From contig JBELMB010000004.1 of assembly GCA_042088665.1 (NCBI GenBank), forward strand, positions 5,054-69,053: a DNA stretch of 64,000 nt. The letters run 5' to 3'. A program made the translations under genes and the position numbers. Below, piece by piece: positions 10,674 through 33,239 of this stretch. Source of the stretch: Sagittula sp. (GTDB lineage Bacteria > Pseudomonadota > Alphaproteobacteria > Rhodobacterales > Rhodobacteraceae). Positions within the stretch are counted from its first letter, which is position 1. Each line of letters starts with the position of its first letter. The notes under the pieces were generated by a model. The model worked only from the letters and a program-made list of their open reading frames with translations. It ran no database searches and was not told where the DNA came from.

Positions 10674-10701
10674 GTATCAGGCTCCCTGTGTCCCGAGGCT
10701 G

Positions 10702-14411: not shown

Positions 14412-15014
14412 TCAACGGATCCGGAAAAGCTCTGACGTTTGGTCGATAAATCGCTGCAGGCGCACCGGACGCTGCTGCAGTTCGGCCCGCGCCAGACTGG
14501 ACAGCACGGCGGAATTGATCGCGCGCGGTGCGCGGTGCACGGGGACCTGCGCGGTGTCGTTGGGCGCAATCGGCCCGCCGGACCAGCCCACCGCCAGCCC
14601 GAGAAAGACCGCCGGGCTGCGCTGCGGTGCGAAAAGCGCGCGGTGCATCACCTGATAGCGATTCTCGTTGTCGGAGTAGCTGCACCATTTGGCCACCAGT
14701 TCCATAAGCTCGCGGTCTGCATGGCTCATGTCATCGCTGGCCACGCGCAGACACTCATAGGCCCACCAGATCGCCATCGGTGGCACCGCTGCAAAGGCCG
14801 CGAAGGTGACCGCCTCTTCGGGGGTGGTGGATCCCGCAAGTCGCTGCAGGTAGGCGAGGTTGTCCTCGTCATCGCGTGGGCGGTGCTGGGTCATGTGCTT
14901 GACCTGCGGCATCGCGCCATAAAGTTCGAACGGGGTCTCGTAACGCAGCGCCGACATGGGCGGCTGCGTCTTTTCGGTTTCCTCGTCGTCGATGTCTTGC
15001 ACGTCGCTTGCCAT
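14412..15014 (-). CDS. uncharacterised protein, first gene of the T6SS operon
   Basis: 200-aa ORF, same strand, 49 nt upstream of tagH. Acidic N-terminus and no signal peptide. From memory it resembles a DUF (possibly DUF6931-type) seen next to T6SS loci. This has not been verified. Confidence 0.6.
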   Translation of the reverse strand: MASDVQDIDDEETEKTQPPMSALRYETPFELYGAMPQVKHMTQHRPRDDEDNLAYLQRLAGSTTPEEAVTFAAFAAVPPMAIWWAYECLRVASDDMSHADRELMELVAKWCSYSDNENRYQVMHRALFAPQRSPAVFLGLAVGWSGGPIAPNDTAQVPVHRAPRAINSAVLSSLARAELQQRPVRLQRFIDQTSELFRIR

Positions 15015-15340
15015 GATTCGACTTTTTCCCGTGTCGCCGCGCCGGTCAAGTCAGGTTTCACGATATTTTCCGCTCAAAGAGCGCTACAGGTCGTATTTCC
15101 GCGGCAAGGACCCCCAAAATCCGCCTTTGGCACCCAGATGGGCCTGACGGATCGGCGTGCTGTCGCGGATGTGGCCCAGATGCCCCGAAGGATGCGCGCC
15201 CCGGGGACGGGCGCCGCTTGCACAGTATAATGCTTCACAGCGGAGGATCGTTGCCGTTGCCCAAGCGCCAATACGGGGCGTCACAGAGGCGCAACCGCCC
15301 CTTGGCAGGTGTCGTCTGGATGCGAGCGGATCCGACGCAA

Positions 15341-15415
15341 GACAACAAAGCCGCCCACGCCGGATCAAGGGCGCGGGCGGCTCTTGTGTCAGGTTGGGGC
15401 GCAGCAAGCTGCGCC
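15341..15415 (-). terminator. icd terminator region (two hairpins)
   Basis: Minus strand, after the icd stop: GGCGCAG-CTTG-CTGCGCC (15398-15415). Then AGCCGCCC-(18 nt)-GGGCGGCT (15349-15382) followed by TTTGTTGTC. Confidence 0.55.
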
Positions 15416-15423
15416 GGGGACCG

Positions 15424-17628: not shown

Positions 17629-18197
17629 GGGATCCCTCTTGAGTGTGCTGGCGCGAGTGTTGCGCCTTCCCTAGAGCATCACCGGCAATGCGTCTACAGT
17701 ATGCGGCGGTATACACTGTCGCATGTCGTCGCGGCAAAGTCCTGCGCTTCGAGGATCAAGACACCCTCGGCAGGCCGCGAAATTCATAGTCTTCCGCACC
17801 AAGGGGTGGCTGGCCTGTCCCAATCAGGGCTATATCTGGAGGCCGCAAACCCACTCTGAGGCCTTTTTGTCCCAGTTTGGCGGCCGGGATGCGCGCTCTC
17901 GCGTTAACACTTTATGAACAAGCAAGCTGGTGCCGAATCGGTCTTGAAACAGAAAGCATGGGATTCCAGCCGCTTGGAAAACGTCGCGCCAGTCACCTGC
18001 TGCCTTGCTGTGGATAAAACCTGCCTGTGTTGCAGATTTACCCCGCTCAGGGGTTTCCGCGCATCAATCGAGGTTCAAATTGTCGCCTCTTTGACCGTTC
18101 GCGTGTAGCCATGTTCCGAAAGCGGGCAAAATACGTCGGGTAACGTCCTCGGCGTGCATCAGGCTTTGCATAAAAAACGTTTAAGACGAGGACGACA

Positions 18198-19598
18198 ATG
18201 AGCGGTTTCTCCTATGCGCGTGGCAGCCTGGGTTCGGGATTCATATGGCTCTCGGCCCCATTGAGACGCGCGCTGTTAGGGGCCGCCTTGGTTTTCCCCC
18301 TCACCGCCTGCGGTGTGACCTACAACAGTTCCGCAGTCACCGAACGCGATGACGAGGCGCCGGTCACGGTTGTCACCATGACGCCGAGCGCGATCCGCGC
18401 CGCGAATGCGACACCCTACGCCCCGCGCGGTCTGCCCAGCGTGTTCTACGCCGTGGCGGGCAGCGGAAACGTGGCGACCGCCGGTGGCGTGCCAGCGCCG
18501 CCCTACCTGCCCAACGAACAGCGCGAGGCGCTGGAGTATCGCCCGCTGCCCGACGTCGCACCGCAATCCTATCGCATTGGTGTGGGCGACGTTCTGCTGC
18601 TGGCGACCCGCGGTCGCGGCGACACCATCGAGCAGCTGACCGGCCTTCTGGCCGCTGCGAACCAGCGCGAAGGCTATACCGTGCGCGACGATGGCACGAT
18701 CTCCATCCCGGATGTCGGCGCTTTCAACGTTCTGGGCCTGACCGTCGATCAGGTCGAGCAGCAGCTCTTCCAGCTTCTCGTGGAAAACCAGATCGACCCG
18801 TCGTTCAGCGTCGAGATCAGCGAATTCAACTCGCAGCGCGTCGCCGTCGGTGGTGCCGTGCGCACGCCGCAGCTGGTGCCGATCACGCTGAACCCGCTGA
18901 CGCTGGGGGATGCGCTTGTGGCCGCCGGTGACATCGCCGTCCGCGACCGCGAGTTTGCCTCGATCCGCGTCTATCGCGACGGCACGCTCTATCAGATCCC
19001 TCTGGACCTCTACTTCGAGAATCAGGGCCTGCAGCGCAAGGTGCTGCAGCCGGGCGACGCCGTGTTCGTCGACACCAACTACGACCTCGACCGCGCGCTC
19101 GAATTCTATCAGGCCCGCATCGACGTGATCTCCCTGCGCACCGAAGTGCGTTCGCAGGCGCTTGATGCGCTGGCGACGGAAATCACCCTGCGCCGCAACG
19201 TGCTTGAGGATCAGCGCCGCAACTTCGAACGTCGCGAAGCGCTGGGCGCGGAGAAGCGCGACTACGTCTACCTCTCCGGCGAAGTGACAAAGCAGACCCG
19301 TCTGCCGCTGCCCTACAACCAGCAGGCCACGCTTGCGGATATCCTCTACGGTGCCGGCGGGTTCGACAACACGACAGGCGATCCGACCAACATCTACGTG
19401 ATGCGCGGAAGCGCCTCCGGGGTGGTTGCCTATCACCTGAACGCCCGCAACGCGGCAGATTATGTCCTGACGACGCATTTCCAGATGCGCCCAAGCGATG
19501 TGATCTTCATCGAAGAGCAGCCCATCACCAAATGGAATCGCTCTGTCAGCCAGTTGGTGCCATCGCTCATCCAGGCGGCGAACGCAGCGACCAACTGA
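18198..19598 (+). CDS. polysaccharide export outer-membrane lipoprotein (Wza-like)
   Basis: Lipobox (LVFPLTAC). Poly_export-like motif (YRIGVGDVLLL) and repeated SLBB-like segments. Confidence 0.75.
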   Translation: MSGFSYARGSLGSGFIWLSAPLRRALLGAALVFPLTACGVTYNSSAVTERDDEAPVTVVTMTPSAIRAANATPYAPRGLPSVFYAVAGSGNVATAGGVPAPPYLPNEQREALEYRPLPDVAPQSYRIGVGDVLLLATRGRGDTIEQLTGLLAAANQREGYTVRDDGTISIPDVGAFNVLGLTVDQVEQQLFQLLVENQIDPSFSVEISEFNSQRVAVGGAVRTPQLVPITLNPLTLGDALVAAGDIAVRDREFASIRVYRDGTLYQIPLDLYFENQGLQRKVLQPGDAVFVDTNYDLDRALEFYQARIDVISLRTEVRSQALDALATEITLRRNVLEDQRRNFERREALGAEKRDYVYLSGEVTKQTRLPLPYNQQATLADILYGAGGFDNTTGDPTNIYVMRGSASGVVAYHLNARNAADYVLTTHFQMRPSDVIFIEEQPITKWNRSVSQLVPSLIQAANAATN

Positions 19599-19764
19599 TA
19601 AACCTAAAGATGAACAATGCGTCGGGGGCCAAGTGCCCCTGCGCTGGATTCTGCCCAATAGGCAGGAACTCGCCATAAATTTGAGCGGTATTCCCCGGAG
19701 GAAGCCCCCCTGACACGACTGATATCTTGTCAGAACTTAACCGCCTGCCCATATACGAGTCATT

Positions 19765-20529
19765 ATGAGCTGGTTAAGAACATTGGTGTCCAAGCGCCCT
19801 GATCGCCCAATAGCGTCAGGGTTCCCGTCCTTCACGGCCCCGGTGGCACCTGACGCACCCTTTTACGCGATCGGAGATATCCACGGCTCCATTACAGCCC
19901 TGGAAGCCCTCCTGATCAAAATCGAATCCGTGGATTCAAATCCCCGGGTGGTCTGTGTGGGTGACTACATCGACCGAGGTGACGACTCCGCCAACGTCCT
20001 GCGTTGGCTGAAACGCTTGAACGAGGAATTCGGCGACAGCTTCACCTGTCTGATGGGCAACCACGAACAGATGCTGCTGCGGTTCCTCGAAAACCCTTCC
20101 ATGTATGGCGACCGCTGGTTCCGCCATGGCGGGCTGCAGACCCTTGCGAGCTACAACGTGTCCCGGCCGTCGAATGGCAGCGACGAAGGTGTGCGGGACA
20201 ACCTCTTTGACGCCATGGGCGAAGATATGGTGGTCTGGCTCGCGAACCTGCCGCTGGTCTGGCAAAGCGGCAACGTCGCCGTCGTGCATGCCGCCGCAGA
20301 TCCCATTCTGCCGCTGGAGGCGCAGTCCGATCAGGTGCTGCGCTGGGGTCACCCGGACTTCTTCTCGGTGCCGCGGACGGATGGCATCTGGGTCGTGCAC
20401 GGCCATACCATTGTCGATCAGGCGGAGGCCGTCGACGGACGCATTTCCGTCGATACGGGGGCCTATGCCACCGGCAGCCTGACCGCCGCCTACGTGGCGC
20501 CCGGCGGCGTCAGCTTTCTGTCCACCTGA
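19765..20529 (+). CDS. metallophosphoesterase / PPP-family Ser/Thr phosphatase
   Basis: GDIHG, GDYIDRGDDS and GNHE motifs occur in the canonical order. Confidence 0.85.
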   Translation: MSWLRTLVSKRPDRPIASGFPSFTAPVAPDAPFYAIGDIHGSITALEALLIKIESVDSNPRVVCVGDYIDRGDDSANVLRWLKRLNEEFGDSFTCLMGNHEQMLLRFLENPSMYGDRWFRHGGLQTLASYNVSRPSNGSDEGVRDNLFDAMGEDMVVWLANLPLVWQSGNVAVVHAAADPILPLEAQSDQVLRWGHPDFFSVPRTDGIWVVHGHTIVDQAEAVDGRISVDTGAYATGSLTAAYVAPGGVSFLST

Positions 20530-20690
20530 ACACGCCCACGCGCTGCGCGTGAATTGGGCAGCGCACAAAAAAAACCGGCGCGCGGCTGGCCAAGCGGTTT
20601 GACGAGCGTCCCCTGTGCTCCAGAGCCCTTGCCCTTTGAAATCCTATCGATACCCTCGGCGCCACGAAACGATAGACAGGGAGCTCTAAC

Positions 20691-21521
20691 ATGACACGTT
20701 TTTCCACAGCCATGGCCACTGTGCTGGCCACCTTGATCCCCGCAACCGCCATTGCCGAATGCACCAATGACACCTGGAACAAGGTGATGGAGCGCGGCAA
20801 ACTCGTCGTTGGCGTAAAGGCCGACTACAAGCCCTGGGGCTTCCGTGACACCGACGGCAGCCTCGTCGGCATGGAAATCGACATGGCCGGCGATGTGGCC
20901 GCGACCATGGGCGTCGAGCTTGAGCTCGTGCCGGTGCAATCCTCCAACCGGATGCAGTTCCTCGAGCAGGGCAAGATCGACCTGATGATCGCCACCATGT
21001 CCGACCGTCTGGACCGTCGCGAGATCGTCGGCATCGTCGGCCCGAACTACTACACATCCGGCACCAACCTGCTGGCCCCAAAGGCGCTCGGCCTGAGCGA
21101 CTGGAACGAGCTGTCCGGCAAGCCCGTCTGCGGCAAGCAGGGTGCCTTCTACAACCAGATCGTCGAAGAGCGCTATGACGCAACCATTGTGGCTTTCGTC
21201 GGAAACGCCGAGGCCAAGCAGGCGCTGCGCGACAAGAAGTGCATCGGCTGGGTCTATGACGACAGCTCCATCATGGCCGACCTCGCGTCCGGCGAATGGG
21301 ATGACTTCGAAATGCCCATGGCCACCGAAGACGACAACCCCTGGGCGCTGGCCGTGCCGAAAGCCGAAGAAAACTGCGTCTTTGGTCGCTTCATGTCTGG
21401 CATGCAGTACTCATGGCACAAGGACGGCACGCTGATCGAGCTCGAAGCCAAATGGGGCATCCAGCCGACCAGCTACCTGGCCAACGAGTCCGAAAAGTTC
21501 AGCGACTGGCTGGCGGAATAA
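20691..21521 (+). CDS. amino-acid ABC transporter substrate-binding protein
   Basis: Signal peptide plus family-3 SBP pattern (KLVVGVKADYKPWGFRD...). First gene of an ABC operon. Confidence 0.85.
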   Translation: MTRFSTAMATVLATLIPATAIAECTNDTWNKVMERGKLVVGVKADYKPWGFRDTDGSLVGMEIDMAGDVAATMGVELELVPVQSSNRMQFLEQGKIDLMIATMSDRLDRREIVGIVGPNYYTSGTNLLAPKALGLSDWNELSGKPVCGKQGAFYNQIVEERYDATIVAFVGNAEAKQALRDKKCIGWVYDDSSIMADLASGEWDDFEMPMATEDDNPWALAVPKAEENCVFGRFMSGMQYSWHKDGTLIELEAKWGIQPTSYLANESEKFSDWLAE

Positions 21522-21733
21522 CCTTCTCGCAACGTGGCAGGGGGCCCCTTGGGTGCTCCCTGCAGACCGGTCGCCCTTGGCTGCGTCGCGCCGTGAGTAT
21601 TTGAAAAACAGAGAAGCCCAGAGCGCTTGTGTTTCTCTGTTTCGAAAATACTCCGGGGGAGCGCGTCAGCGCGGGGGCAGAGCCCCCTCTTGCGGGGCAA
21701 CTGGACCAGCCGATACGTCAAACAGGGGCATGC

Positions 21734-22489
21734 ATGCTTGACGCCTTCACGGAGTTCTTCCGCCAACTGGCCGCAGATCATCCGACGTGGAACTTCATCT
21801 TCTTTTACCAAGAGCGACAATGGAACAAGGTGGTCGGCGGTCTCTGGCTGACGATCCAGCTGTCGATTGCCTGCGTGATCTTTTCCGTGATCATCGGCAT
21901 TCTTGGCGCCGCCATGCAAGGCGCGCGGTCGCGGCTCGCGCGCGGGGTGGTGAATGGCTACATCCAGTTCTTTCGCAACACGCCGCCCTTTGTGCAGCTC
22001 TTGTTCTTTTACTTTGCACTCGGACGGTTCACGCCCACCTACAGCCCTGACGGCTGGTTGGAAGTGCCGATCATTTCTGCGACAGGTTGGGCGATCATCT
22101 CGCTGAGCTTCTTTGCAGGCGCTTTCAACGTCGAGATCTTTCGTGCCGGTATCGAAGCCGTGCCCAAGAGCACGCAGGAGGCGGCGCAATCGCTCGGGTT
22201 CACGCGGCTTCAAACCTATCGTTTGATCGTCCTGCCGCTGGCGATGCGGGTCTCGCTGCCCGCGCTGAACAACAACCTTGTGAACCTCGTCAAGACCACC
22301 ACGCAGGCCTTTGTCATTGCGGTGCCGGAATTGCTGTACCAGTCGATCACCATCTGGAACGATTTTCCCTCTGCGCAGAACCCCATGATGTTGGTGCTGT
22401 TTGTCAGTTATCTCTGCCTCGTCGGGGTCCTGGTCATGGGTATGACCCGTTGGGAGCGCAAGATGCGCATCCCGGGCTACGGAGGCTGA
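21734..22489 (+). CDS. amino-acid ABC transporter permease
   Basis: His/Glu/Gln/Arg-type permease pattern (NTPPFVQLLFFYF, EAAQSLGFTRLQTYRLIVLP). The start is set at the internal ATG (MLDAF...) rather than the ORF-track start at 21629. Confidence 0.8.
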   Translation: MLDAFTEFFRQLAADHPTWNFIFFYQERQWNKVVGGLWLTIQLSIACVIFSVIIGILGAAMQGARSRLARGVVNGYIQFFRNTPPFVQLLFFYFALGRFTPTYSPDGWLEVPIISATGWAIISLSFFAGAFNVEIFRAGIEAVPKSTQEAAQSLGFTRLQTYRLIVLPLAMRVSLPALNNNLVNLVKTTTQAFVIAVPELLYQSITIWNDFPSAQNPMMLVLFVSYLCLVGVLVMGMTRWERKMRIPGYGG

Positions 22490-22490
22490 C

Positions 22491-23387
22491 ATGAGATCCT
22501 TTCCCGGCATCAACGCCCCCGCCCGCACTGACCTTCCCGTCATGCATTCGCACGCCGCGCTGTACCGCGCGCCTTCCCGCATCGGCTTTTCCGAATGGCT
22601 GGCGGCGATCCCCCTTTGGGTTTTCTGCCTTGCCTCGGTCAGCCTCGTGCTTTGGCCTCTGATGGCCGGGGCGCAGGCCATCGGCACCGACGACCTGCCT
22701 CAGGGGCCGCTGGTCTCGCTGTGGCGCTGGGTGCCCTTCATCCTGTTTCAGGGCTTTGTCTTCACCCTGATCATCAGCTTTCTGACCATGGTCGTGGGCA
22801 CCTTTCTCGGGGTCTTTCTCGGGTTGGGACAGCTGTCCCCGATCAAGCCGCTGTCCTGGGTGTCGATGGTGATCACCCAGATCTTTCGCAACTCGCCCTG
22901 GTTGGTGCTCTTGTTCATCGTGATGCTGTCCTTCCCGTTCGAGTTCGAAGTGGCGGGCATGATCATCCCGGTGCCCGATTGGGCCAAGGCGGTCATTGGC
23001 CTCGCCCTTCCGGTCATGGCCAACATCTCGGAAATCGTGAGGGGCGCGGTGAACTCCGTCCCCACCGGCCAGTGGGAGGCCGCCGAAAGCCTCGCCTTCA
23101 GCCGCCGTCAGACGCTTTTCCAGATCATCCTCCCGCAGTGTATCAAGCGGATGATCCCCCCCTGGATGAACTGGTACGCGATCCTCACCATGGCCACACC
23201 GATCGTGTCGATCCTCGGCGTCGAAGAGGTTCTGAACCTCACCCGTCAAGCCATCGAGGCAGAAAACAACCGTCCCGAACTGCTTGTGCCGTTCTACGGC
23301 TTTGTCCTGCTGATCTTCTTTCTCTACTGCTATCCGATCGCGCTTCTGACCGTACGGTTGGAAAAACGCTTTGTGCTGAAACTGTGA
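22491..23387 (+). CDS. amino-acid ABC transporter permease
   Basis: Second permease. EAA-loop-like segment EAAESLAFSRRQTLFQIILPQ. Confidence 0.82.
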   Translation: MRSFPGINAPARTDLPVMHSHAALYRAPSRIGFSEWLAAIPLWVFCLASVSLVLWPLMAGAQAIGTDDLPQGPLVSLWRWVPFILFQGFVFTLIISFLTMVVGTFLGVFLGLGQLSPIKPLSWVSMVITQIFRNSPWLVLLFIVMLSFPFEFEVAGMIIPVPDWAKAVIGLALPVMANISEIVRGAVNSVPTGQWEAAESLAFSRRQTLFQIILPQCIKRMIPPWMNWYAILTMATPIVSILGVEEVLNLTRQAIEAENNRPELLVPFYGFVLLIFFLYCYPIALLTVRLEKRFVLKL

Positions 23388-23397
23388 AGGTGCCCGA

Positions 23398-24144
23398 ATG
23401 ACCTGGACCCCCGACATGCCCATCGTCTCCATCAAGGAGGTGCACAAGAGTTTTGGCGATCTCGAAGTGCTGAAGGGCGTTTCGCTTGATGTGATGAAGG
23501 GCGAGGTGATCTGCATCATCGGTCCGTCCGGCTCCGGCAAATCGACCTTGATCCGCTGCATCAATGCGCTGAACGACATCCAGTCCGGATCCATCAAGGT
23601 GGAGGGCCAAGAGGTGCACACCCCCGACCTTGACGCATTGGAACTGCGCAAGAAGGTCGGCATGGTGTTCCAGCAGTACAACCTGTTTCCGCACAAGACC
23701 GCGTTGGAAAACATCATGATGGCGCCGGTGAAGGTGCTCAAGGAACCCCCCGAAGAAGTGGCCGCCCGCGCCCGCATGCTGCTCAAGAAGGTGCGGCTGG
23801 AGGGCAAGGAAGACGCCTTTCCCGGAGAGCTTTCCGGCGGCCAGCAACAGCGCGTGGCCATCGCCCGCAGTCTGGCAATGCAGCCCGACGTGATGCTGTT
23901 CGACGAGGTCACCGCCGCGCTGGACCCGGAGACGGTGAAAGAGGTGTTGGTCACGATCAAGGACCTCGCCGCCGATGGAATGACCTGCATTCTTGTCACG
24001 CACGAAATGGGCTTTGCCCGGGAACTGGCGGATTGCATCTATTTCACCGACCGTGGTGTGATCGTCGAAAGCGGCCCGCCCGCGACCTTTTTTGACGAGG
24101 CAAAGGACCCGCGGACCAGGGAATTCCTCAGTCAGATCCTGTGA
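23398..24144 (+). CDS. amino-acid ABC transporter ATP-binding protein
   Basis: Walker A (GPSGSGKST), signature (LSGGQQQRVAIAR) and Walker B (MLFDE). Confidence 0.93.
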   Translation: MTWTPDMPIVSIKEVHKSFGDLEVLKGVSLDVMKGEVICIIGPSGSGKSTLIRCINALNDIQSGSIKVEGQEVHTPDLDALELRKKVGMVFQQYNLFPHKTALENIMMAPVKVLKEPPEEVAARARMLLKKVRLEGKEDAFPGELSGGQQQRVAIARSLAMQPDVMLFDEVTAALDPETVKEVLVTIKDLAADGMTCILVTHEMGFARELADCIYFTDRGVIVESGPPATFFDEAKDPRTREFLSQIL

Positions 24145-24346
24145 CACCCCGCGCATGGGTCTTGTCATGGAGGTCCGCGATCAGTCGGCTTGCCGTGCGC
24201 GCGCACAGCGCGGGGATTACCGCGTGCAGGGCAGCAGCCCCGGCAGCCAAGGCCAGTCGTGCCGAGATTCCCGCAGCAAAGCGCGCGTGTTGCAGATAGT
24301 TTTCGTCGACAGACCGCGGATGGGCGAGAAAAATACGTGTCATCAT
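24128..24346 (-). CDS. small hypothetical protein (72 aa), possibly DUF6356-like
   Basis: Only the last 72 codons of the 307-aa ORF-track entry look coding. ATG at 24346 with an AAGGAG-containing RBS (AAAGGAGCC) upstream. The family name is from memory only. Confidence 0.45.
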   Translation of the reverse strand: MMTRIFLAHPRSVDENYLQHARFAAGISARLALAAGAAALHAVIPALCARTASRLIADLHDKTHARGVTGSD

Positions 24347-24451
24347 CAGGGGGCTCCTTTTGCCGTTGCGCCCAACCTGCACAAGATCTCGCGAGAGCTG
24401 ATCCCAATTTTCATGCCAGATGCGTTGATCTTGGGATAATCTCCCAATACT

Positions 24452-24919
24452 TTGCCGGGTATGGAGACACTCGACAGTTTCGACCGCAAGATCCTGACCC
24501 TGTTGCAGGCCGACGCCGCCCTGTCGCTGGACGATCTTGGGGCGCAGGTCGGCCTGTCCCGCAACGCATGCTGGCGCCGGGTCCGCCTGCTGGAAGAGCG
24601 CGGCGTGCTGAAGGGCCGCGTGGCTCTGGTCGATCCGGACAAGGTCGGGTTGGGTCTTCAGGTCTTTGTCCAGTTGCGCGCGCCCCGGCACAGCGCCGAC
24701 TGGCTGCGCGCCTTCCGACAGGCGGTGTCGGCCATGCCCGAAATCCTTGGCGTCTACCGGATGAGCGGGGATCTGGACTATCTGATCCGCGCCCGGGTGG
24801 ACACGATTGCAGGCTACGATGCCTTGTATCAGAGGCTGATTTCCAAGGTCGAGCTGCGCGATGTCTCCGCCAGTTTCGTGATGGAAGAGCTCAAGGACAG
24901 CACCGCCTTGCCCCTGTGA
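24452..24919 (+). CDS. Lrp/AsnC family transcriptional regulator
   Basis: 155 aa. HTH region (LDSFDRKILTLLQADAALSLDDLGAQVGLSRNACWRRVRLLEERGVL) followed by an AsnC-type ligand domain. Confidence 0.9.
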   Translation: MPGMETLDSFDRKILTLLQADAALSLDDLGAQVGLSRNACWRRVRLLEERGVLKGRVALVDPDKVGLGLQVFVQLRAPRHSADWLRAFRQAVSAMPEILGVYRMSGDLDYLIRARVDTIAGYDALYQRLISKVELRDVSASFVMEELKDSTALPL

Positions 24920-25276
24920 CAGGCAGAGCGGCGGGCGAACGGGGGACCGTTGTGAGGGATCCCGTCTTTTGCACATGGGTGCCCGGCGGGGGGGGGCTGC
25001 CCGGGGGGGACATCTGGCCCGTCTGAGGTGACATTGCGCCGTGGTGCCCACGGCCCGTGAGGCCGGATCGCATCCGGTGTTCCGGTGGTGGCCAGATCAC
25101 TTCACGGCTTTCAGGGCGCTCTGTAGGATCTTCAGGAAACCTTCACCGAATCGCCCAACAATAAAGGGCGGTAGGGAGAGGGATACTCCGGTTTTGCCCT
25201 CTGATCGCAGGCACGCTTGGGCCTTGGACCGGGCGCGCGATGACCCAAGCCTGCAATCACTGGCCTCTGCCCGCCG

Positions 25277-25930
25277 TCAATTCCCGCTTTGCGAAAAGTG
25301 CTGGTAGTCCTTCAACGACGACCAGTCGCCGCCCCACCCCCAGCCGCGCGCCTTGAACGCCCGCACGACCACATCCCCCGAACGGATCACGCCCGGCACA
25401 TCCGCACCACGCTCGCCGCTGTCGTCATAATCCTGCCCCGCGACCGGAGACGTCTTGCGCGCCGTCACGAAAGGGTTGTGAACCGGGTTGATGTCCACTG
25501 CGAGGCCAAAGGCGTGTTGCGACATGCGGTTGCTGCCTCCCACGCGGCGACAGTTGAAGGCAGAGGTGTTGTTGGCGGCCATGGACATGCCATCGTCACC
25601 GGCAAATTCATGCACCAGCCGCATGCTCTGGATGGGAAAGCCGGCCGCGTGGATCTCTGCGAAAACATCCAACACGTCCTCGGCCACATCGCTGGCGACG
25701 ATCAGCGCACCAAGGCGCGTGTCACCATAGAAATCGACAAAGGGAACCGTCAGCAAGCTGAGCGCCTCGCGCGCCGGACAATCGAGATGGCTGTGCCAAC
25801 TCACGCCCTGCATCTTCGCCCAGATGTCGTCCGGGATGGGGGCCTGCGTGCCACGCTCCGGTGTCTGCGCCAGCGTGGCAGAGCCTGCCAGAGCCATCAC
25901 CGCGCCCACGTTTCTGATCTGCTGCCACAT
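25277..25930 (-). CDS. secreted M15-family peptidoglycan metallopeptidase (VanY-like)
   Basis: SQHAFGLAVD motif (SxHxxGxAxD). The start is placed at MWQQIRNVGAVMALAGSATLAQ, a signal peptide, rather than at the ORF-track start 26128. Confidence 0.75.
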   Translation of the reverse strand: MWQQIRNVGAVMALAGSATLAQTPERGTQAPIPDDIWAKMQGVSWHSHLDCPAREALSLLTVPFVDFYGDTRLGALIVASDVAEDVLDVFAEIHAAGFPIQSMRLVHEFAGDDGMSMAANNTSAFNCRRVGGSNRMSQHAFGLAVDINPVHNPFVTARKTSPVAGQDYDDSGERGADVPGVIRSGDVVVRAFKARGWGWGGDWSSLKDYQHFSQSGN

Positions 25931-26040
25931 CCCGTGCGTCCTTTTGTCGGCATCATCTGTCGCCAGTAAAGGCTGACGCAGAGGCGCGCTCAAGTCACGG
26001 ATCCCTGACCCGCATCCGGCGGGAGATTGCCGAAAGATCC

Positions 26041-27465
26041 TCAGTCCAGCAGGAACTTGCGGCTGACAAAGCCCGCGCGATTTTCCGAATCGCGCACTTC
26101 GTACCACAGGATATTTGCAGCGATGCACCGCTTTACCCGCGCGTCTTCCTCCGTGTCCGCCGGGTCGAGCGCCACGGCGTCACAGGCCTCAAGGCAGCGC
26201 TCCGCGACGCTTTCGTCGCCGGGGGTGCGCAGGCTCTGGGTGCCGATGACCCGCAACCGCTCCCCAAGGGGGACCTGTCGCAGCACCGGAGCAGAGAATC
26301 CGGCCTCCTCTCGCAGGTTCACATATTCCGAGACGTTGACCACGGTCACCTCCGGTCGCAGCACCCAGCAGCGGTCCAGCGCGGTCTCGGTCAATGCGGC
26401 GCGCGCCCGGTCCCCCAGCGCCGCCACATAGGTCGCTTGTGCGTCGGGCTCGGGCAGGGGCAAGTCCTCAAGGCGGTGGTCGGCAGGATAGAGCATATAG
26501 GCTTGCAGGGGCGCAGCCTCAGGCGTGGCAAAGGGCCGGAGTGGCTGCCGGATCTCTCCCAGCGGGGCTGTGCCGGTCCCGTCGCGCAGGTCCAGCGCAC
26601 AGGGCGCGCCGGTGCTGCCGTCGTCGCGCAGGGCCACCGTGCCCTCACCCAGCCCGACAAAGCGGAACGCAGTGGGGGTCTGCGCATCTGGCAGGTCTTC
26701 GGGGTGCAGATCCTCGCGGGCCGCGCGGGCGTTCAGGCACGCAAGGCGAAAGGCGCCGTCGTCATCCGTTTCGGGCAGGTCCACGGGGGCCACTGCAATG
26801 CCCCAGCGCGCCGCTTGCCCAACGGTGGCGACCGCGGTCATCCCGCCGGGCGGTGTCCCCAACAGCGCGTGCAACAGCGAATCAGGAAACAACAGATCCC
26901 GGCGCGTGCGCAGCACAACCACTTCGGCAAGGGCAGACAGCGCGCGGCGATAGGCCCGGGCGAGGGCCTGCGGATCGTCACCCGCCGATCCGTCCGGCAC
27001 ATCCAATGGCGGCGCATGAAATCCCAAAAGCCCGCGCGGATGCAGCACGCGGTCGGGCCGCGTGCCCCCGTCGTCGCGGGCGACTCCCGCCATGAAGATC
27101 ACGGCGCAGGGGCCGGTGCACCGCGCCCCACGCGCAACTGCCGCGCCCCATCCGCGACCGGCCAGCGCCTCGGCCAACCGCGTCGCTTCGAGCATGTCAC
27201 CCATGGCGCTGTCGAGGCAAAGCCGCCTTGGCGCCTGCGTCCCGGATGCCTGCCTGTCGATGAAATCCAGCGCCACGGCCAGCGCCTCTGCATCGCCCTC
27301 GGTGATCTCTCCGCGCAGATGCAGCGCACAGCCCATCTCGGCCTCGCCTTCATCGGCATCCCCAAGATCCGCGGCCTGTACCGCGCCGCACAGCGCCAGA
27401 GCCACAACCGCCACGGTTCGGGCAGCAATGGGCCAAATCAAGAGACGTCGAAGCAGTGCCATCAT
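26041..27465 (-). CDS. secreted hypothetical protein with a C-terminal SH3-like region
   Basis: The internal start MMALLRRLLIWPIAARTVAVVALALCGAVQA gives a signal peptide. The N-terminal part resembles periplasmic ClpP-fold proteins (recollection). The C-terminal ~100 aa look SH3b-like. Confidence 0.55.
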   Translation of the reverse strand: MMALLRRLLIWPIAARTVAVVALALCGAVQAADLGDADEGEAEMGCALHLRGEITEGDAEALAVALDFIDRQASGTQAPRRLCLDSAMGDMLEATRLAEALAGRGWGAAVARGARCTGPCAVIFMAGVARDDGGTRPDRVLHPRGLLGFHAPPLDVPDGSAGDDPQALARAYRRALSALAEVVVLRTRRDLLFPDSLLHALLGTPPGGMTAVATVGQAARWGIAVAPVDLPETDDDGAFRLACLNARAAREDLHPEDLPDAQTPTAFRFVGLGEGTVALRDDGSTGAPCALDLRDGTGTAPLGEIRQPLRPFATPEAAPLQAYMLYPADHRLEDLPLPEPDAQATYVAALGDRARAALTETALDRCWVLRPEVTVVNVSEYVNLREEAGFSAPVLRQVPLGERLRVIGTQSLRTPGDESVAERCLEACDAVALDPADTEEDARVKRCIAANILWYEVRDSENRAGFVSRKFLLD

Positions 27466-27794
27466 GCCCGTAAGACAGGCGAAATCGGACCCGGTTGCAA
27501 CGCCTAATCGACGGGGGCCGTGCCGGTTCCCCCGCGGCAGAAGGGGCCCGACACCGGTGCTTGCCATCCGTGAGGCCACGATGTGAAACGCGGCGATGCC
27601 ATAGCGCCACCGCCGTTTCACAACGATCCGGAAACCGTCAACCCAGCGGCGAAAGGGGGCCGGGTCAGAGCACAAGACCTGCCCGGGTCCATCTGCCCAA
27701 CTGTCTGAAAGAAAGACGATAGTGCCGTGTGAATCACCCGGCCATCGACACGCACATGCCAGATGCGCCGCTGCAAAGCCCTGTCAGGGAAAAC

Positions 27795-28109
27795 TCAGGT
27801 GGACCACTGATCGATGCGGTCGATCTGCAGGATCGAGCCGGAGTAGAAATCATGCGGACCCTTGTTTTCGGCCGAAAACACTCCCTCGATCAGCATGGTC
27901 TTGCCATGGAACTCTGCCAGGTTCATCTCGGGCGGCAGGTCAAGGTGGATGCCGTTCTTGGTCACCGACTGGTTGTAGAACTCCGCCGCAGCCCACATCA
28001 CCGCGCTCTCCGCGCCAAAGGTGCACAGGCCGATCACACGGATTTTCTGTTCCTCATAGATCTCCGGCGCGTGGATCAGCGCCAGCAGGGATACGAATTC
28101 CATCTCCAT
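27795..28109 (-). CDS. small cytoplasmic protein, paralog B of a tandem pair (candidate immunity protein)
   Basis: 104 aa. Strong AGGAGG RBS 8 nt upstream of ATG 28109. About 40-45% identical by hand alignment to the upstream paralog. No signal peptide. Confidence 0.75.
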   Translation of the reverse strand: MEMEFVSLLALIHAPEIYEEQKIRVIGLCTFGAESAVMWAAAEFYNQSVTKNGIHLDLPPEMNLAEFHGKTMLIEGVFSAENKGPHDFYSGSILQIDRIDQWST

Positions 28110-28140
28110 CGTTCATTCCTCCTGTGTGGCGCGGGGCCAG

Positions 28141-28455
28141 TCAGCCTTTCCAGGGTTCGATGCGGGCAATCTGCTGGATTGAACCCGAGAACATGCCCAT
28201 GTGGCCATTGCTTTGCGCAGAAAAGATCCCCTCGATCAGCATCACCTGTCCATCGTGCTGCACCAGATCGCGCATGCCGATGCTCAGCCAGACGGCATTC
28301 TTCGAGATATACTGCGTGCGGTATTCCTGAGCGGCCCACACGGCGTTGCCTTCAAATTCGAACGAACACAGGCCCACGACACGCACCGCTTGCCCGTCGT
28401 ACATTTCGGGTGTGCCAATCAGGGCATGCACCGCCACGGGTTCGAAACTGCTCAT
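28141..28455 (-). CDS. small cytoplasmic protein, paralog A of a tandem pair (candidate immunity protein)
   Basis: 104 aa from ATG 28455, with a GAGGAAA RBS (the ORF track starts at GTG 28458). Shares motifs with paralog B: VxGLCxF, WAAxE, MLIEGxFSA, SGSIxQIxRI. Confidence 0.75.
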   Translation of the reverse strand: MSSFEPVAVHALIGTPEMYDGQAVRVVGLCSFEFEGNAVWAAQEYRTQYISKNAVWLSIGMRDLVQHDGQVMLIEGIFSAQSNGHMGMFSGSIQQIARIEPWKG

Positions 28456-28478
28456 CACGTCTTTCCTCTGGTTTGGGT

Positions 28479-28955
28479 TTATCGGGTCGGTGCTGTCTGT
28501 GGCAGGGTGTCTTCACTGCTGTCAGAGGGGTTGTAGCGTTTGATCACACCCGTTGGTGTAGACACGTAGACGGGCGCATTGTTCGAATCGCCAAATCTGC
28601 GGTCCGCATTCGAAAAGTTCTCACTGTCGTATCGCGGGTCGGGGCCACCGTGTGTGTGCCAGACCGCGACGTCACTGGCACCTTTGGGACCCGGATCGGC
28701 GCTGTCTATATCACCGGCCACTGGCGCGCGCGGCGTGAAGGTGCCGTCGCCATTGTCCTGAACCCAACCTGCGGTCTCGCTGTTGGAGGCCACGGAGCCG
28801 GGGTTTTCATGTTGCATGGCCGCGACGGCCGCATCCTCGGCCGAGCCATAAGACTTTTCGTATGGGGTCGCCGCGTTGCAACCGCTCACACAGCCACCGG
28901 CTTCTGATCCACCATTGTTGGCGGCTGGCGGGGTCGATTCCTTTTCGCCGCTCAT
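28479..28955 (-). CDS. DUF4329-like protein (candidate toxin/effector component)
   Basis: The start at ATG 28955 forms an ATGA overlap with the upstream gene's stop. The core (SAEDAAVAAMQ...ETAGWV...WHTHGG...ENFSNAD...VYVSTPTGVIKRY) matches my recollection of the DUF4329 pattern found at Rhs/YD C-termini. Confidence 0.7.
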   Translation of the reverse strand: MSGEKESTPPAANNGGSEAGGCVSGCNAATPYEKSYGSAEDAAVAAMQHENPGSVASNSETAGWVQDNGDGTFTPRAPVAGDIDSADPGPKGASDVAVWHTHGGPDPRYDSENFSNADRRFGDSNNAPVYVSTPTGVIKRYNPSDSSEDTLPQTAPTR

Positions 28956-29722
28956 AGCGGTTGTCCCTCTGCATGGCGCGTCAGGACGGCTTCGAGCCAG
29001 ATCCGCGACTTGCGTTCGACCTGCGCGATTCGGGCATCTGCATTGGCCGGACCGGGCTGGTAGAGGGTCTTGGCGATCCACGGATACAGCGGATCAGAGA
29101 TGCAGCCATGGCCAAAGGCCAGCATCAGCGACATCATCACCCAGTCCGACCAGCGCGCCTGCGCGCCCAACCGTCCGGTCACGCCACGCGCGCGCAGCGT
29201 CAACCGGCCAAAGCTCAGCCGGCCCATATGTGCCAGCTTCTCCGGAAAGATCTGCTGAAAGGTCGCATGCATGGCGTCGAACTCGGTCGGATGCGCGCCC
29301 ACTTCTGGCGGTGCCTTGAAATCCACAAGGGCCTGCAACGCCTTCATGACGTTCTCGCCTTCGGGTCCGGCGACGGTCTTGGTGTACTCCAGCGACAGCT
29401 TGTGCAGGTCTTCGGCACGGGCCATTTCCTTGCCGCCGCTGCGCAGCGGCGGCGCGTAGAGTCGGTATTGCGGGTCGGTGTCGAAATAGCTGCCGCGCAA
29501 CAGCGACAGTTCAATGAACAACCGGATGGGACCGCGCAGGGTGAAACCATAAAACCTTGCACGTTCAATGCTGTTTTGCACAAAGGCATTCACGCCTTCG
29601 TTGCCCAATGTCTTGCACAGGGCCGGGGAAAATTCCCAGCAGTGGTGTCGCATCTCGGCTTCGAAATGGGCCGCGACAACCTGGTCGAATTCTGCAATTT
29701 GTTCGCGTTTGATTGTGATCAT
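28952..29722 (-). CDS. hypothetical protein (256 aa), first gene of the operon divergent from vgrG
   Basis: Long ORF with good coding look. Translationally coupled to the DUF4329 gene. No recognisable family and no signal peptide. Confidence 0.7.
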   Translation of the reverse strand: MITIKREQIAEFDQVVAAHFEAEMRHHCWEFSPALCKTLGNEGVNAFVQNSIERARFYGFTLRGPIRLFIELSLLRGSYFDTDPQYRLYAPPLRSGGKEMARAEDLHKLSLEYTKTVAGPEGENVMKALQALVDFKAPPEVGAHPTEFDAMHATFQQIFPEKLAHMGRLSFGRLTLRARGVTGRLGAQARWSDWVMMSLMLAFGHGCISDPLYPWIAKTLYQPGPANADARIAQVERKSRIWLEAVLTRHAEGQPL

Positions 29723-29914
29723 GGGCGGATGTCTACCACAAGGAGGCGGGCGCCGAGAGTATTGAAATTATGACTTTAAAAGAAGGCCACAGTCCTCATA
29801 TGGTAGCCCACAGCGAATGTTTTTTCAAATAGGCATTGCACGGGCAACGGGTTTTTGACGTTGCTCGGGGGCATGTCTGGGGTACACTCACTTTAGATCA
29901 CGTCAGGTTCACCG
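29723..29914. promoter_or_regulatory. divergent promoter region between the unknown operon and vgrG
   Basis: 192-bp comparatively AT-rich spacer between two divergently oriented start codons. No specific promoter motif could be assigned. Confidence 0.4.
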
Positions 29915-32251
29915 ATGCCTTTTAAACAAGATCTCCGAATGGGGCAGTTGAAGACCACGCTTGGTCCGGACGCCCTGGTGCTGCAACGCTTCGAAGGCGT
30001 GGACCGGATGAACGGTCTGTTCGACTACCATGTTGCGTGCCTTTCTGCCGATCCAAATGTCGATTTCGACGCCCTGCTGGGCACCCATGCCACCGTCAAA
30101 CTGATTGGTCAGGACGGGGCGGACAACTTCTTTGACGGGCTGGTCACAGAGGCGCGCTGGATCGGCGATGGCGATGGCGGCAGCCGCTATGAACTGGTGC
30201 TCCAGCCCTGGTTCTGGCTCACGACACTAAAGCGCAACCAGAGGATTTTCCACGAAAAAACGGTGATCGAGATCCTGCAGGAACTGCTGCAGCCCTATGG
30301 CTCTGCCGGCAGCGTGGTCGTGCAGTGCAACGAGACCTATCCGACGCTGGAATACACCGTTCAGTACCGGGAAACGGATTTCAACTTTGCCTGCCGGATG
30401 ATGGAACGGCACGGGATCAGCTATCACTTCAAACAGTCGGACGGCGCCCATGACATGGTGCTGACCGACAGCGCCGAAGTGCACACAGCCCACGGTGATT
30501 TCCCGGTAAAGCCCTATGTCGGCCACCATCAGGAAGACAAGGAACACCTCTGGGAATGGCGGCCCGAGCGGCGCATGGTCACGGGCGCGATCCGCATGAC
30601 GGATTACAACTTCAAGACGCCGACCGTCGCGATGGAGAAGGACCAGCAAGGCACGGCCTCTTATGAACACGGCCAGATCGAGAGCTTTGACTGGCCGGGC
30701 GACTACCTCGATCCGGGGCGCGGCGCCCAGTTGGCGCAGCTGCGGCTGAAGCGCGAACAGGGTCAGGACAAGCGCTACGAATCGCTTGGCGACATCACCG
30801 GTCTGCGCGCGGGCCTGAAGATCACCATCGCAGGCGACAGCGAGAATGTGCCCGGCAAGGGAGAGGACTTCCTCTGCCTCGTGGCGCACCACAGCTATAC
30901 CTCCGACAACTACCGCTCCGGCGGGACGGCTGGCGACGGGTTTGCCTATACGGGGCGCTACGTCTTCATGCCCGCGACCGCGCCCATGGCGCCGGACCTC
31001 AAGACCCGGCATGCGGATGTGCGCGGGCCGATGACCGCCGTGGTGGTGGGGGCCGAAGGCGAAGAGATCGACTGCGACGAACATGGCCGCATCCTTGTGA
31101 TGTTCCCCTGGGACATCAATCAGTCGGTGTCGATGCGCTGCCGCGTGGCCCAGAACTGGGCTGGCGGCGGCTGGGGCGGCATGATCGTGCCCCGCATCGG
31201 CATGGAGGTGCTGGTCGAGTTCCTCAACGGCGACCCGGATTTCCCGCTGGTCACCGGCTGTGTCTACAATGGGCGCAACATGGCGGCCTATCCGCTGCCG
31301 CAGCACAAGACCAAATCGGTCTTTCGTACCGACACGCACAAGGGCAACGGCTTCAACGAAGTGGTCTTTGAGGATGAACTGGGCGAAGAGCACATCGCCT
31401 TCAAGGCGCAAAAGGACATGTCGCGGCTGGTGCTGAACGATTCGATCAGCCGGGTGAAACGGCATGACATCGAATCGGTCGGGGCCAACAAGATGGTCGA
31501 GGTCGGCAACAACTTCAAAGTGGACGCAGGCGGCTCGGTGAACTTTACCGTTGGCGGCACCGGCCCGCAGGCAAAACAGCTGCTGAGCGGTCTGTCCGGG
31601 CTCGCCGGCAAGACCAAGACGCTGATCAGCCAGGGCCTGTCCAAGGGCGGTGGCAGTTCCGGCGGCGGGGCCGGGAAATGGTCGAGCTCTGTCGGCCAGT
31701 CAAAGCTGGGCTTTATCGGCGGCGAGGGCAGCTCTGGCCGCAGCGGGATGCGCGACGCGGATGAGACCGGGTCGGACGGCAACCACAAGCTGCGCGAAGA
31801 CGGCACCAAGCTCGGCCAGAGCGGCTACAGCCTGTTCGAGACCCCCGGCACGATGAACACCATGGCGTCGAACTTTCGGTCTGACACCACCGGCGTGGCC
31901 TCCGCGGAACAGGTCGGCGTCACCAAGGTGTTGAACGTCGGCGGCGCGCTGATGGAACAGGTCGGCAAGGAGATGCACACAACCGTCGGCCAGAAGCAGA
32001 CAAACACCGTCGGCCAGTCGATCCTGAACCAGACGATGAAGCACACGCTGATCGCGACGCAGAAATTCACCATCGCAGCGCCCGGCGGCTCGATCGAGAT
32101 CGACATGAGCGGCATGACGATCAAGGCCTTCCAGCTGAAGATCCTGTGCCCCTCGGTGGACTTCAACCCGGGCGCGCCGAGTCAGGCGGCGGTCCTCATG
32201 GCGCAGCAAGCCTTTGCAGAACAATGCCAAGGCACGGCGGGGAACAACTGA
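29915..32251 (+). CDS. vgrG: T6SS spike protein VgrG
   Basis: 778 aa. Contains a gp27-like N-terminal region, a gp5 OB-fold/beta-helix region (VAQNWAGGGWGGMIVPRIGMEVLVEFLNGDPDFPLVTGCVYN), and a C-terminal repeat region. Confidence 0.95.
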   Translation: MPFKQDLRMGQLKTTLGPDALVLQRFEGVDRMNGLFDYHVACLSADPNVDFDALLGTHATVKLIGQDGADNFFDGLVTEARWIGDGDGGSRYELVLQPWFWLTTLKRNQRIFHEKTVIEILQELLQPYGSAGSVVVQCNETYPTLEYTVQYRETDFNFACRMMERHGISYHFKQSDGAHDMVLTDSAEVHTAHGDFPVKPYVGHHQEDKEHLWEWRPERRMVTGAIRMTDYNFKTPTVAMEKDQQGTASYEHGQIESFDWPGDYLDPGRGAQLAQLRLKREQGQDKRYESLGDITGLRAGLKITIAGDSENVPGKGEDFLCLVAHHSYTSDNYRSGGTAGDGFAYTGRYVFMPATAPMAPDLKTRHADVRGPMTAVVVGAEGEEIDCDEHGRILVMFPWDINQSVSMRCRVAQNWAGGGWGGMIVPRIGMEVLVEFLNGDPDFPLVTGCVYNGRNMAAYPLPQHKTKSVFRTDTHKGNGFNEVVFEDELGEEHIAFKAQKDMSRLVLNDSISRVKRHDIESVGANKMVEVGNNFKVDAGGSVNFTVGGTGPQAKQLLSGLSGLAGKTKTLISQGLSKGGGSSGGGAGKWSSSVGQSKLGFIGGEGSSGRSGMRDADETGSDGNHKLREDGTKLGQSGYSLFETPGTMNTMASNFRSDTTGVASAEQVGVTKVLNVGGALMEQVGKEMHTTVGQKQTNTVGQSILNQTMKHTLIATQKFTIAAPGGSIEIDMSGMTIKAFQLKILCPSVDFNPGAPSQAAVLMAQQAFAEQCQGTAGNN

Positions 32252-32847
32252 TGACGGACGTTGTGGTGCATATGTCCGATCCGGCAGAAAGCCCGGACGA
32301 GGCGCTGGCAACCGCGCTTCTGAAAGCGCGGCGCGAAGGCCAGCAGGTCTATTTGCTGGTGGATGCCAGCCGCTCTCCGGCGATCCAGTTCGTGATCGAG
32401 ACGCTGACCGACGAGGGGCTGTGCCTCTTTGATGGACAGGCCTTCGAGGATCTGTCGGGCTTTGCGCCGTGGCTGGTGCCCCTGTCGCTTGAGAACGACG
32501 GCGTGTTTTCGTGGTTCATGGACAACGGCTGGGGCAAGGACTGGGGCCTGTTCCTGATTGCCGGAACGGATGCGCGGCGGGTGAAAACCTCGCTGAAGCG
32601 CGCTCTGCGGGTGCAGACCGAAGACAATCAGGAATTGTTCTTCAAATTCTACCGACCCGGTGTCTTCAACACCTACCTGCCCGCGCTTGAACCGCAGCAA
32701 TCGGTCTATGTGATGCGCGACCTCGTGCAGGTCTGGGCCGAAGATGCCGACAACCCGGCGCTTGTGCACCGTTTCGCCGTGCGCGAGGGAACGCTGCGCC
32801 GGGCCGATCTGATGCTGAACGTGGTCGATGAGGTCGCGGAGGCCTGA
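32251..32847 (+). CDS. DUF4123-family T6SS adaptor/chaperone
   Basis: 198 aa. The ATG shares one base with the vgrG TGA stop (TGATG). Motifs VYLLVDASR, LFDG...FAPWLVPL and FFKFYRPGVF fit the DUF4123 pattern. Confidence 0.82.
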   Translation: MTDVVVHMSDPAESPDEALATALLKARREGQQVYLLVDASRSPAIQFVIETLTDEGLCLFDGQAFEDLSGFAPWLVPLSLENDGVFSWFMDNGWGKDWGLFLIAGTDARRVKTSLKRALRVQTEDNQELFFKFYRPGVFNTYLPALEPQQSVYVMRDLVQVWAEDADNPALVHRFAVREGTLRRADLMLNVVDEVAEA

Positions 32848-32894: not shown

Positions 32895-33239
32895 GTGGGA
32901 CAACCGGTCTGCTGCATGGGTGACATGCACATCTGCAACATCACAATCCCGCCCACCCCGGTCTCTCCGGCGGTCAAACACCTTGGGGGACCCGTGGTCC
33001 AGCCGGGGCAGGCGATTGTCCGGATAATGGGGCGCCCGGTGGCCGTGGTCTCCGGCATGACCATCTGCATGAACCTGATCACCCCGCCCGGCGCGCCGCC
33101 GGTGCCGACCCCCGACCCGATGGTCAAGGGCTCCATGATGGTGCGCATCACGAGCCTGCCGGTGATGCGGATCTCCGACATGTGCTCTCACGGTGGCACC
33201 ATGTCGACAGGCAACCCGATGGTGAAGATCGCCATGTGA
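32895..33239 (+). CDS. PAAR-domain spike-tip protein (no toxin extension)
   Basis: 114 aa. GTG start with an AGGAGAG RBS. Three PAAR-like repeats (GDMHIC, PVAVVSGMTIC, PVMRISDMCSHGG). Confidence 0.85.
   Translation: MGQPVCCMGDMHICNITIPPTPVSPAVKHLGGPVVQPGQAIVRIMGRPVAVVSGMTICMNLITPPGAPPVPTPDPMVKGSMMVRITSLPVMRISDMCSHGGTMSTGNPMVKIAM

Follow-up and report, generated by a model that had tools for sequence, protein, structure and literature searches.

Type VI secretion system (T6SS) cargo effectors share no general signal, and how they are recognized is an open question. Tap adaptors are bilobed: their alpha/beta N-lobe, of approximately 177 residues, binds the C-terminal helix-turn-helix of VgrG, and their C-lobe is all-helical, variable and effector-binding (Colautti et al., PMC11582642). 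In Tap3, the C-terminal helical domain contacts the effector (PMC12909789). TecT and co-TecT have been described as a split bilobed adaptor (PMC11582642) and form a module of Pseudomonas aeruginosa together with TseT and TsiT (Burkinshaw et al. 2018, summarised in PMC11582642, PMC6560169 and bioRxiv 10.1101/835710); in citing papers co-TecT (PA3906) figures only as a 'hypothetical protein'. Here we analysed a stretch of 64,000 nucleotides (nt) from Sagittula sp. (contig JBELMB010000004.1, positions 5,054 to 69,053; hereafter, the window), centring on four closely packed open reading frames (ORFs) of its minus strand (27795-29722) that lie divergently from an operon for VgrG, a DUF4123 adaptor and a PAAR protein. 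We consider it probable that this four-gene operon forms the cargo half of a module that loads the T6SS spike, comprising a split-adaptor lobe (the 256-amino acid (aa) product of the first gene, here called F256), a leader-tagged Tox-JAB-2 protein and OB-fold immunity proteins.

F256 (28952-29722, minus strand) has no family model in NCBIfam or in Pfam, where nothing matched at E ≤ 1. A word-indexed search nevertheless retrieved 326 relatives, nearly all of them 250-260 aa long and around 40% identical; the few named members belong to the Verrucomicrobiota, Acidobacteriota and Gammaproteobacteria. An exhaustive profile search over 1.84 billion cluster representatives extended the family to 5,612 representatives at E ≤ 1e-3, with 970 at E ≤ 1e-30. 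The alignment of 40 sequences from many phyla showed a mean column identity of 63% and 28 invariant columns, with invariant stretches that include RGPxRLxxE...GSxFDTDPQY and FGHGCxxDPLYPWIxxTL. Length is thus nearly constant and conservation strong over at least ten phyla or classes, while the gene that follows F256 varies completely. Loading or accessory factors show this pattern, so F256 is probably one of them, and the original prediction, in which the 256-aa protein figured as a toxin, has to be revised on this point. One family member (P0197, 379 aa) has the N-terminal half internally duplicated in tandem.

The AlphaFold2 model of F256 (predicted local distance difference test score, pLDDT, of 93.8) is all-helical, with twelve helices. 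Comparison of the model with 350,542 PDB chains using Foldseek yielded one non-trivial match, to Tap3 in the Tap3-Tke5 complex (9r8g_B), with a probability of 1.00 over 111 columns and a root-mean-square deviation of 2.5 Å, but a template modelling (TM) score of only 0.36 and an E of 1.1. In the 318-residue Tap3 chain, the DUF4123 N-lobe maps to approximately residues 70-178. Foldseek found no match to F256 among viral structures, and tblastn found none in 72,556 plasmids; the F256 profile gave only chance, TPR-like matches to PDB sequences (E > 0.6). Likewise, none of the 40 aligned members matched DUF4123 (PF13503) or any real Pfam family, and nine of them showed weak matches to TPR_12. Binding of short linear peptides by TPR-like helical scaffolds is well known among chaperones.

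The DUF4123 proteins encoded next to F256 have a median length of 182 aa, and the Pfam match was confirmed in all 27 that were sampled. In 43 out of 43 cases, the protein ends no more than 33 residues (median 6) beyond the N-lobe match, and the longer proteins owe their size to N-terminal extensions, such as FHA domains. One metagenome-assembled genome (MAG) contains a 599-aa in-frame ORF with the order FHA-DUF4123-F256 (L033:8999-10798). In a related locus (L004) the DUF4123 and F256 genes are in the same frame and only 6 base pairs (bp) apart, so that the loss of a single stop codon would generate the fusion seen in L033. The 'long' F256 ORFs (296-631 aa) resembled fusions, and all but that of L033 turned out to be upstream over-extensions of the ORF call. 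Together, the partners reduced to an N-lobe, the structural match to Tap3 and the L033 fusion suggest that F256 would be the detached equivalent of the adaptor C-lobe, by analogy with co-TecT. The FHA domain, which binds phosphopeptides, is N-terminal on some of the DUF4123 partners (L004:7026-7994 and L044; 321-322 aa), which hints at a possible link between cargo loading and the control of T6SS firing through Fha/PpkA threonine phosphorylation.

A second fusion, P0250 (524 aa), from a metagenome, joins F256 residues 1-255 in frame to a DUF4329-like region, which is 30% identical to the toxin of the window (E 1e-6) and reads ATHG where that toxin has HTH. P0250 is either a real loader-toxin fusion or the product of an assembly frameshift across the usual ATGA overlap. 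Placing F256 ahead of a toxin, as an N-terminal delivery domain would be, it bears on another explanation, namely that F256 is a co-effector that binds the toxin and leaves the cell with it, in effect a delivery domain supplied in trans like the MIX co-effector of VP1388/VP1390. This explanation has precedents (PMC8728615), MIX-like delivery domains existing both stand-alone and fused (PMC10673891), and it agrees with a conserved F256 that adjoins a variable toxin gene and is translationally coupled to it. Nevertheless, we deem it rather unlikely: P0250 is the single fusion of this kind among the 150 best family members and possibly a frameshift, F256 contains neither MIX nor any other Pfam domain, the pairing with DUF4123 proteins devoid of a C-lobe in 43 of 43 cases is better explained if F256 replaces that lobe, and the fold match to Tap3 favours an adaptor.

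The gene following F256 (gene X) encodes proteins of 131-723 aa that are mutually unrelated, with a mean column identity of 11%. The positions that they have in common, M1, P10, G15, P18 and C26, lie in an N-terminal leader of approximately 29 aa with the consensus M-[ST]-D-[DE]-K-K-[PT]-T-[PS]-P-[SA]-[AS]-G-[ND]-G-G-x-P-A-x(6)-C-P. A hidden Markov model (HMM) built from 21 leaders matched 40 of 71 X proteins, always from residue 1 to approximately 29, including the DUF4329 protein of the window (E 3e-8), whose leader occupies residues 1-28 (MSGEKESTPPAANNGGSEAGGCVSGCNA; 28872-28955, minus strand). Across the 8,117 ORFs of the loci, 46 of the 57 leader domain matches were located at the 3' end of F256, and the remaining ones were mostly secondary fragments inside the same X proteins. 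Among 859 ORFs, the window had a match only in the DUF4329 gene, starting exactly at its ATG (E 1.2e-6). A 4-nt overlap (ATGA) joins the stop codon of F256 to the start codon of X in 42 of 71 cases. Pfam matches of X proteins were rare and toxin-like (DUF4329, Gln_deamidase_2, Peptidase_M91 and Peptidase_M6); in the 38 leader-bearing effectors they were all C-terminal, and no N-terminal Pfam match, including those of the MIX, FIX, RIX or WHIX type, was found. Being rich in Pro, Gly and Ser and devoid of a hydrophobic core, the leader was discarded as a lipoprotein or Sec signal. The association of gene and leader suggests that F256 would bind the latter. The leader Cys26 is nearly invariant, and F256 contains a near-invariant G-H-G-C-x-x-D motif (H205, C207 and D210); the two may constitute a shared metal site or participate in a covalent step.

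We scanned one genome per species in GTDB, finding 157 relatives of F256, and retained 80 loci from Acidobacteriota, Verrucomicrobiota, Alpha-, Beta- and Gammaproteobacteria, Desulfobacterota, Myxococcota, Nitrospirota and Planctomycetota, as well as from MAGs of Bacteroidales and Omnitrophota. Gene maps were prepared from our own ORF calls, locally built HMMs and pre-computed Pfam tables; the DUF4123 and PAAR HMMs for the loci were built from first-round matches only. The maps revealed a stereotyped order: VgrG, DUF4123, an optional PAAR, F256, variable gene X and variable gene Y. In the 57 loci with at least 5 kilobases (kb) of upstream sequence, DUF4123 occurred within 1.5 kb of F256 in 35 and VgrG within 10 kb in 34, and approximately 65% of the cassettes were linked directly to VgrG, DUF4123 or PAAR. 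The gene set of the window recurs beside VgrG, DUF4123 and PAAR in relatives, and the window itself contains a T6SS core; very likely, then, the cargo that the divergent vgrG-DUF4123-PAAR operon lacks is encoded by this operon, as had been proposed. In a Nitrospirales MAG (L015, approximately 6282-12000), VgrG-DUF4123-PAAR precedes an F256 fragment and three tandem F256-X-Y cassettes, apparently an array in which every leader-tagged toxin has a separate F256 copy.

The X protein of the window, of 158 aa (28479-28955, minus strand), starts at an ATG located inside a longer ORF beginning with GTG. Its residues 41-146 (28518-28835) match DUF4329 (PF14220) with 76.7 bits, against a gathering cut-off of 28.6 (E 1.8e-21). 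DUF4329 overlaps Tox-JAB-2, a domain of the JAB/RadC-like type whose motif is E, H[ST]H, S, D (Zhang et al. 2012, PMC3482391) and which is predicted to be a nuclease rather than a peptidase and is found on Rhs, T6SS and type VII secretion system (T7SS) toxins (PMC3482391); Salmonella surveys also list PAAR-Rhs-DUF4329 proteins as candidate effectors. The catalytic motif is intact in the window protein, which reads WH-T-H...S-N-A-D, with H100-T-H102 and S115-x-x-D118. The 158-aa protein is thus predicted to be the toxin of the cassette and a metallohydrolase. We found no biochemical study of DUF4329 or Tox-JAB-2 in the open-access literature. The original prediction had assigned no function to any component; this holds for the other three proteins, which have no Pfam or NCBIfam family, but not for this one, with its predicted toxin domain.

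The last two genes encode small paralogs that are 44% identical over 99 residues (E 7e-30) and that match no Pfam or NCBIfam family. The proximal one (28141-28458, minus strand) has 105 aa counted from a GTG, or 104 aa from an ATG; the distal one (27795-28109, minus strand) has 104 aa. A profile search recovered 57 relatives, as compared to three with a single-sequence search, none of them with a Pfam family; weak matches to DUF5818 appeared in 7 of 48 family members. The model of the distal paralog (AlphaFold2, pLDDT 93.9) retrieved OB folds with Foldseek, including RPA14, Ten1 and the anticodon-binding domain of AsnRS. The Imm-NTF2 family 2 immunity proteins linked to Tox-JAB-2 were not matched here, the downstream proteins being predicted OB folds.

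Genes of the small family come after DUF4329 in the F256 cassettes of L006, L007, L011, L091 and L093, and likewise after a 256-aa PAAR-DUF4329 fusion (L086), a 465-aa DUF4329 protein (L092) and, in L094, a DUF4329 protein of 182 aa that is encoded beside VgrG and TssK. Since at least four other architectures also place the family behind DUF4329 genes, the OB-fold paralogs are very likely immunity proteins, as had been anticipated from their tandem arrangement. No toxin was encoded near two of the six members whose contexts were looked up separately, the longer and more distant P0157 and P0161. A 74%-identical relative (L091) also has the duplication, but L006 and L007 do not, and this speaks against a separate paralog for each 'toxin'. 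One of the paralogs may be a spare or orphan immunity gene.

The two larger and two small genes, and the lack of a known function for F256, would agree with a version of the original prediction in which F256 is itself a second toxin and the operon encodes two toxins with two immunity proteins. The small genes, however, are paralogs of one family that tracks DUF4329 rather than F256, and relatives with both F256 and DUF4329 (L006, L007 and L011) have a single small gene. Moreover, T6SS toxins are polymorphic, whereas F256 is nearly constant across phyla, and F256 cassettes always carry a variable toxin-like gene of their own behind F256. We therefore give this idea hardly any credit.

From these results we favour the following sequence of events. 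The spike, VgrG and PAAR, would come from the divergent operon, together with a DUF4123 protein having only the VgrG-binding N-lobe, and F256 would be the detached, effector-binding half of the adaptor, helical and partly TPR-like. Coupling through the ATGA overlap would cause F256 to be translated just ahead of the toxin, whose leader it would then bind; F256 would next dock on the DUF4123 lobe, and hence on VgrG, and the toxin would be fired together with the spike. The OB-fold paralogs would neutralize the toxin in the producer cell, and the T6SS core cluster of the window (93-15014) would be the machine firing the cargo. In this scheme we infer the contacts, the toxicity, the target of the toxin, and the secretion or retention of F256.

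Several observations weigh against this interpretation. The match to Tap3 is partial, and only by inference would its aligned part be the C-terminal lobe; besides, the F256 sequence resembles neither DUF4123 nor any PDB chain. The fusions of L033 and P0250 both stem from assembled metagenomes and may be due to frameshift errors. No leader score was obtained for 31 of 71 X genes, some of which are crude gene calls and others seem real. Additionally, conservation of F256 is unusually high for a chaperone, and its near-invariant GHGC, DTDPQY and RGP motifs could be an enzyme active site. F256 would in that case process or modify the leader before loading, for instance by cleavage or by acting on its invariant Cys. 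The invariant or near-invariant residues His205, Cys207, Asp210, Asp83, Glu71 and Arg102 are compatible with this, as are the nearly invariant Cys26 and the fixed Pro and Gly positions of the leader. Yet no hydrolase or transferase fold or sequence similarity was found in PDB, Pfam or NCBIfam, the all-helical, TPR-like architecture is more typical of peptide-binding scaffolds, and the binding of two conserved partners explains the conservation equally well, making an enzyme improbable.

Also contrary to our interpretation, 20 of the 57 F256 cassettes had no VgrG, DUF4123 or PAAR within 10 kb, and the genes upstream of these orphan cassettes were housekeeping genes. The cassette might then not be T6SS cargo at all, but a stand-alone toxin-antitoxin-like or conflict module that merely happens to be near vgrG, and a change of context between toxin-antitoxin and T6SS has been reported for Tox-REase-5 toxins (bioRxiv 10.1101/835710). 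We regard this as highly improbable, given the direct linkage of about 65% of the cassettes to VgrG, DUF4123 or PAAR and the location of the cassette beside T6SS genes both in the window and in its closest relative. T6SS genomes commonly contain orphan effector cassettes remote from vgrG. Furthermore, orphan cassettes keep both F256 and the leader, which was present on the X proteins of nine orphan loci, and a module acting only inside the cell would have no use for either. An SH3-like secreted protein flanks the orphan F256-DUF4329 cassettes of Mesorhizobium (L007 and L011); in the window, an SH3_3-domain protein (26041-27675, minus strand) and a Peptidase_M15_4 protein (25277-26128, minus strand) are also encoded approximately 330 bp downstream of the operon.

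The F256 ATG (29722) and the vgrG ATG (29915) are separated by 192 bp (29723-29914; 51% GC), a divergent intergenic region that presumably holds shared promoters. On the plus strand follow the genes for VgrG (29915-32251; 778 aa; TIGR03361, E 2.4e-145, and Pfam Phage_GPD, Phage_base_V and Gp5_trimer_C), DUF4123 (32251-32847; 198 aa, with the Pfam match at residues 33-150, that is, an N-terminal lobe only) and PAAR (32895-33239; 114 aa; PAAR_motif, E 1.3e-12), and then an unrelated IalB gene. With this gene content, the neighbouring operon encodes an adaptor but no cargo. In this and in most structural details the sequence bears out the original prediction: the ORF coordinates agree with four tightly packed genes diverging from vgrG; Pfam and the paralog identity uphold the order of a 256-aa protein, a 158-aa DUF4329-like protein and two small paralogs; the stop of F256 and the start of the effector overlap as ATGA; Shine-Dalgarno sequences precede both small genes (AGGAGG 7 nt before the ATG of the distal paralog and GAGGAAAG before the start of the proximal one); and, read by eye, none of the four N-termini has a hydrophobic, signal-like stretch. 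The operon was also said to be more AT-rich than its surroundings, which is true but marginal, its GC content (59.9%, versus 63.9% for the window) ranking in the 6th percentile of equal-sized windows. A scan of the operon for promoters and terminators produced no more matches than in shuffled sequence; there was a single sigma-70-like match (minus strand, 29828-29800), a count that is not above that of the shuffles.

The T6SS core cluster (93-15014, minus strand) encodes ClpV, TssF, TssE, Hcp, TssC, TssB, TssA and DUF6931, as identified with Pfam. Between this cluster and the operon there are approximately 12.8 kb of unrelated genes (15015-27794), among them those for an isocitrate dehydrogenase, polysaccharide export, an ABC transporter, Lrp, an M15 peptidase and an SH3 protein. 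In L091, the closest relative, the four-gene operon directly adjoins DUF6931-Fha-TssA-TssB, and the separation in the window as compared with this abutment suggests an insertion or rearrangement.

More generally, and only tentatively, F256 and the leader might be an undescribed and widespread means of T6SS cargo targeting, in which a linear N-terminal tag is read by a stand-alone receptor that plugs into a DUF4123 protein having only the N-lobe. If so, one conserved loading device would serve hundreds of toxins, unrelated to one another and for the most part unknown, in Acidobacteriota, Verrucomicrobiota, Desulfobacterota, Myxococcota, Nitrospirota and Pseudomonadota, and the leader would come close to a real secretion signal. 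F256 and a leader on unrelated toxins represent a directly testable recognition rule. They also provide a handle for mining, the gene after each of approximately 5,600 F256 clusters being a candidate toxin and the next one a candidate immunity gene; most of these candidates lack any known domain and belong to little-studied phyla of soil and sediment. In addition, an uncharacterised Tox-JAB-2 paired with a new OB-fold immunity family is a defined pair for biochemistry. As for the novelty claimed for the effector/immunity system, the toxin domain has been on record since 2012 and the type of cassette is standard, but the F256-leader module looks undescribed. Neither the leader nor the pairing of F256 with DUF4123 proteins devoid of a C-lobe figured in the original prediction.

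Considering the toxin, the window protein resembles Tox-JAB-2 (PMC3482391) in scoring above the DUF4329 threshold and in keeping the E, H[ST]H, S, D motif, and this domain has already been linked to T6SS, Rhs and PAAR delivery (PMC3482391). It differs from the Tox-JAB-2 domains at the C-termini of Rhs or PAAR proteins in being a stand-alone, leader-bearing cargo of 158 aa, and its candidate immunity protein has an OB fold, unlike the Imm-NTF2 listed for Tox-JAB-2. The leader, in turn, is comparable to MIX, FIX, RIX, WHIX and prePAAR in that it is a conserved N-terminal element on polymorphic toxins that would mark them for T6SS delivery and can be used for toxin mining. Nevertheless, MIX, FIX, RIX and WHIX are folded and comprise 100-300 residues, whereas the leader is a linear motif of approximately 29 residues, rich in Pro, Gly and Ser; and, unlike markers of the MIX type, it is always paired with an upstream receptor-like gene and has no Pfam match. 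The VP1388/VP1390 binary module (PMC8728615) also pairs the toxin with a conserved partner, which is required there, and encodes both together with an immunity gene, but that partner is secreted and carries MIX, which F256 does not.

The closest parallel is with the TecT module, which likewise includes a PAAR gene and an effector gene followed by an immunity gene. Like TecT, the DUF4123 protein of the window consists of the conserved N-lobe only; like co-TecT, which binds the effector, F256 is a separate protein encoded between adaptor and effector, with DUF4123 at 1.5 kb or less in 35 of 57 loci. There are also clear differences. The toxin of the window is a Tox-JAB-2 and TseT is a Tox-REase-5, for which the accessible papers do not describe a conserved N-terminal leader. 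The two halves of the window module are in divergent operons, across a divergent promoter. Finally, TecT docks on a C-terminal extension of PAAR4, whereas in the window the PAAR protein has 114 aa, with the motif at residues 29-103, and vgrG is part of the module; with little room for an extension, docking of DUF4123 on VgrG seems more likely.

F256 may correspond to the co-TecT family. We found no description of F256 or of the leader in the open-access literature, where the pairing of F256, leader and N-lobe DUF4123 appears undescribed. Compared with the bilobed Tap/TEC adaptors (Tap-1, Tap6, Tap14 and Tap3), the outcome would be the same, a cargo effector tethered to VgrG, and the F256 model partly superposes on Tap3. 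Here, unlike in the bilobed Taps, the lobes are separate genes. Moreover, the C-lobes of bilobed Taps are variable and matched to effector families, whereas F256 shows high conservation and seems to recognize one shared leader on toxins that are not related.

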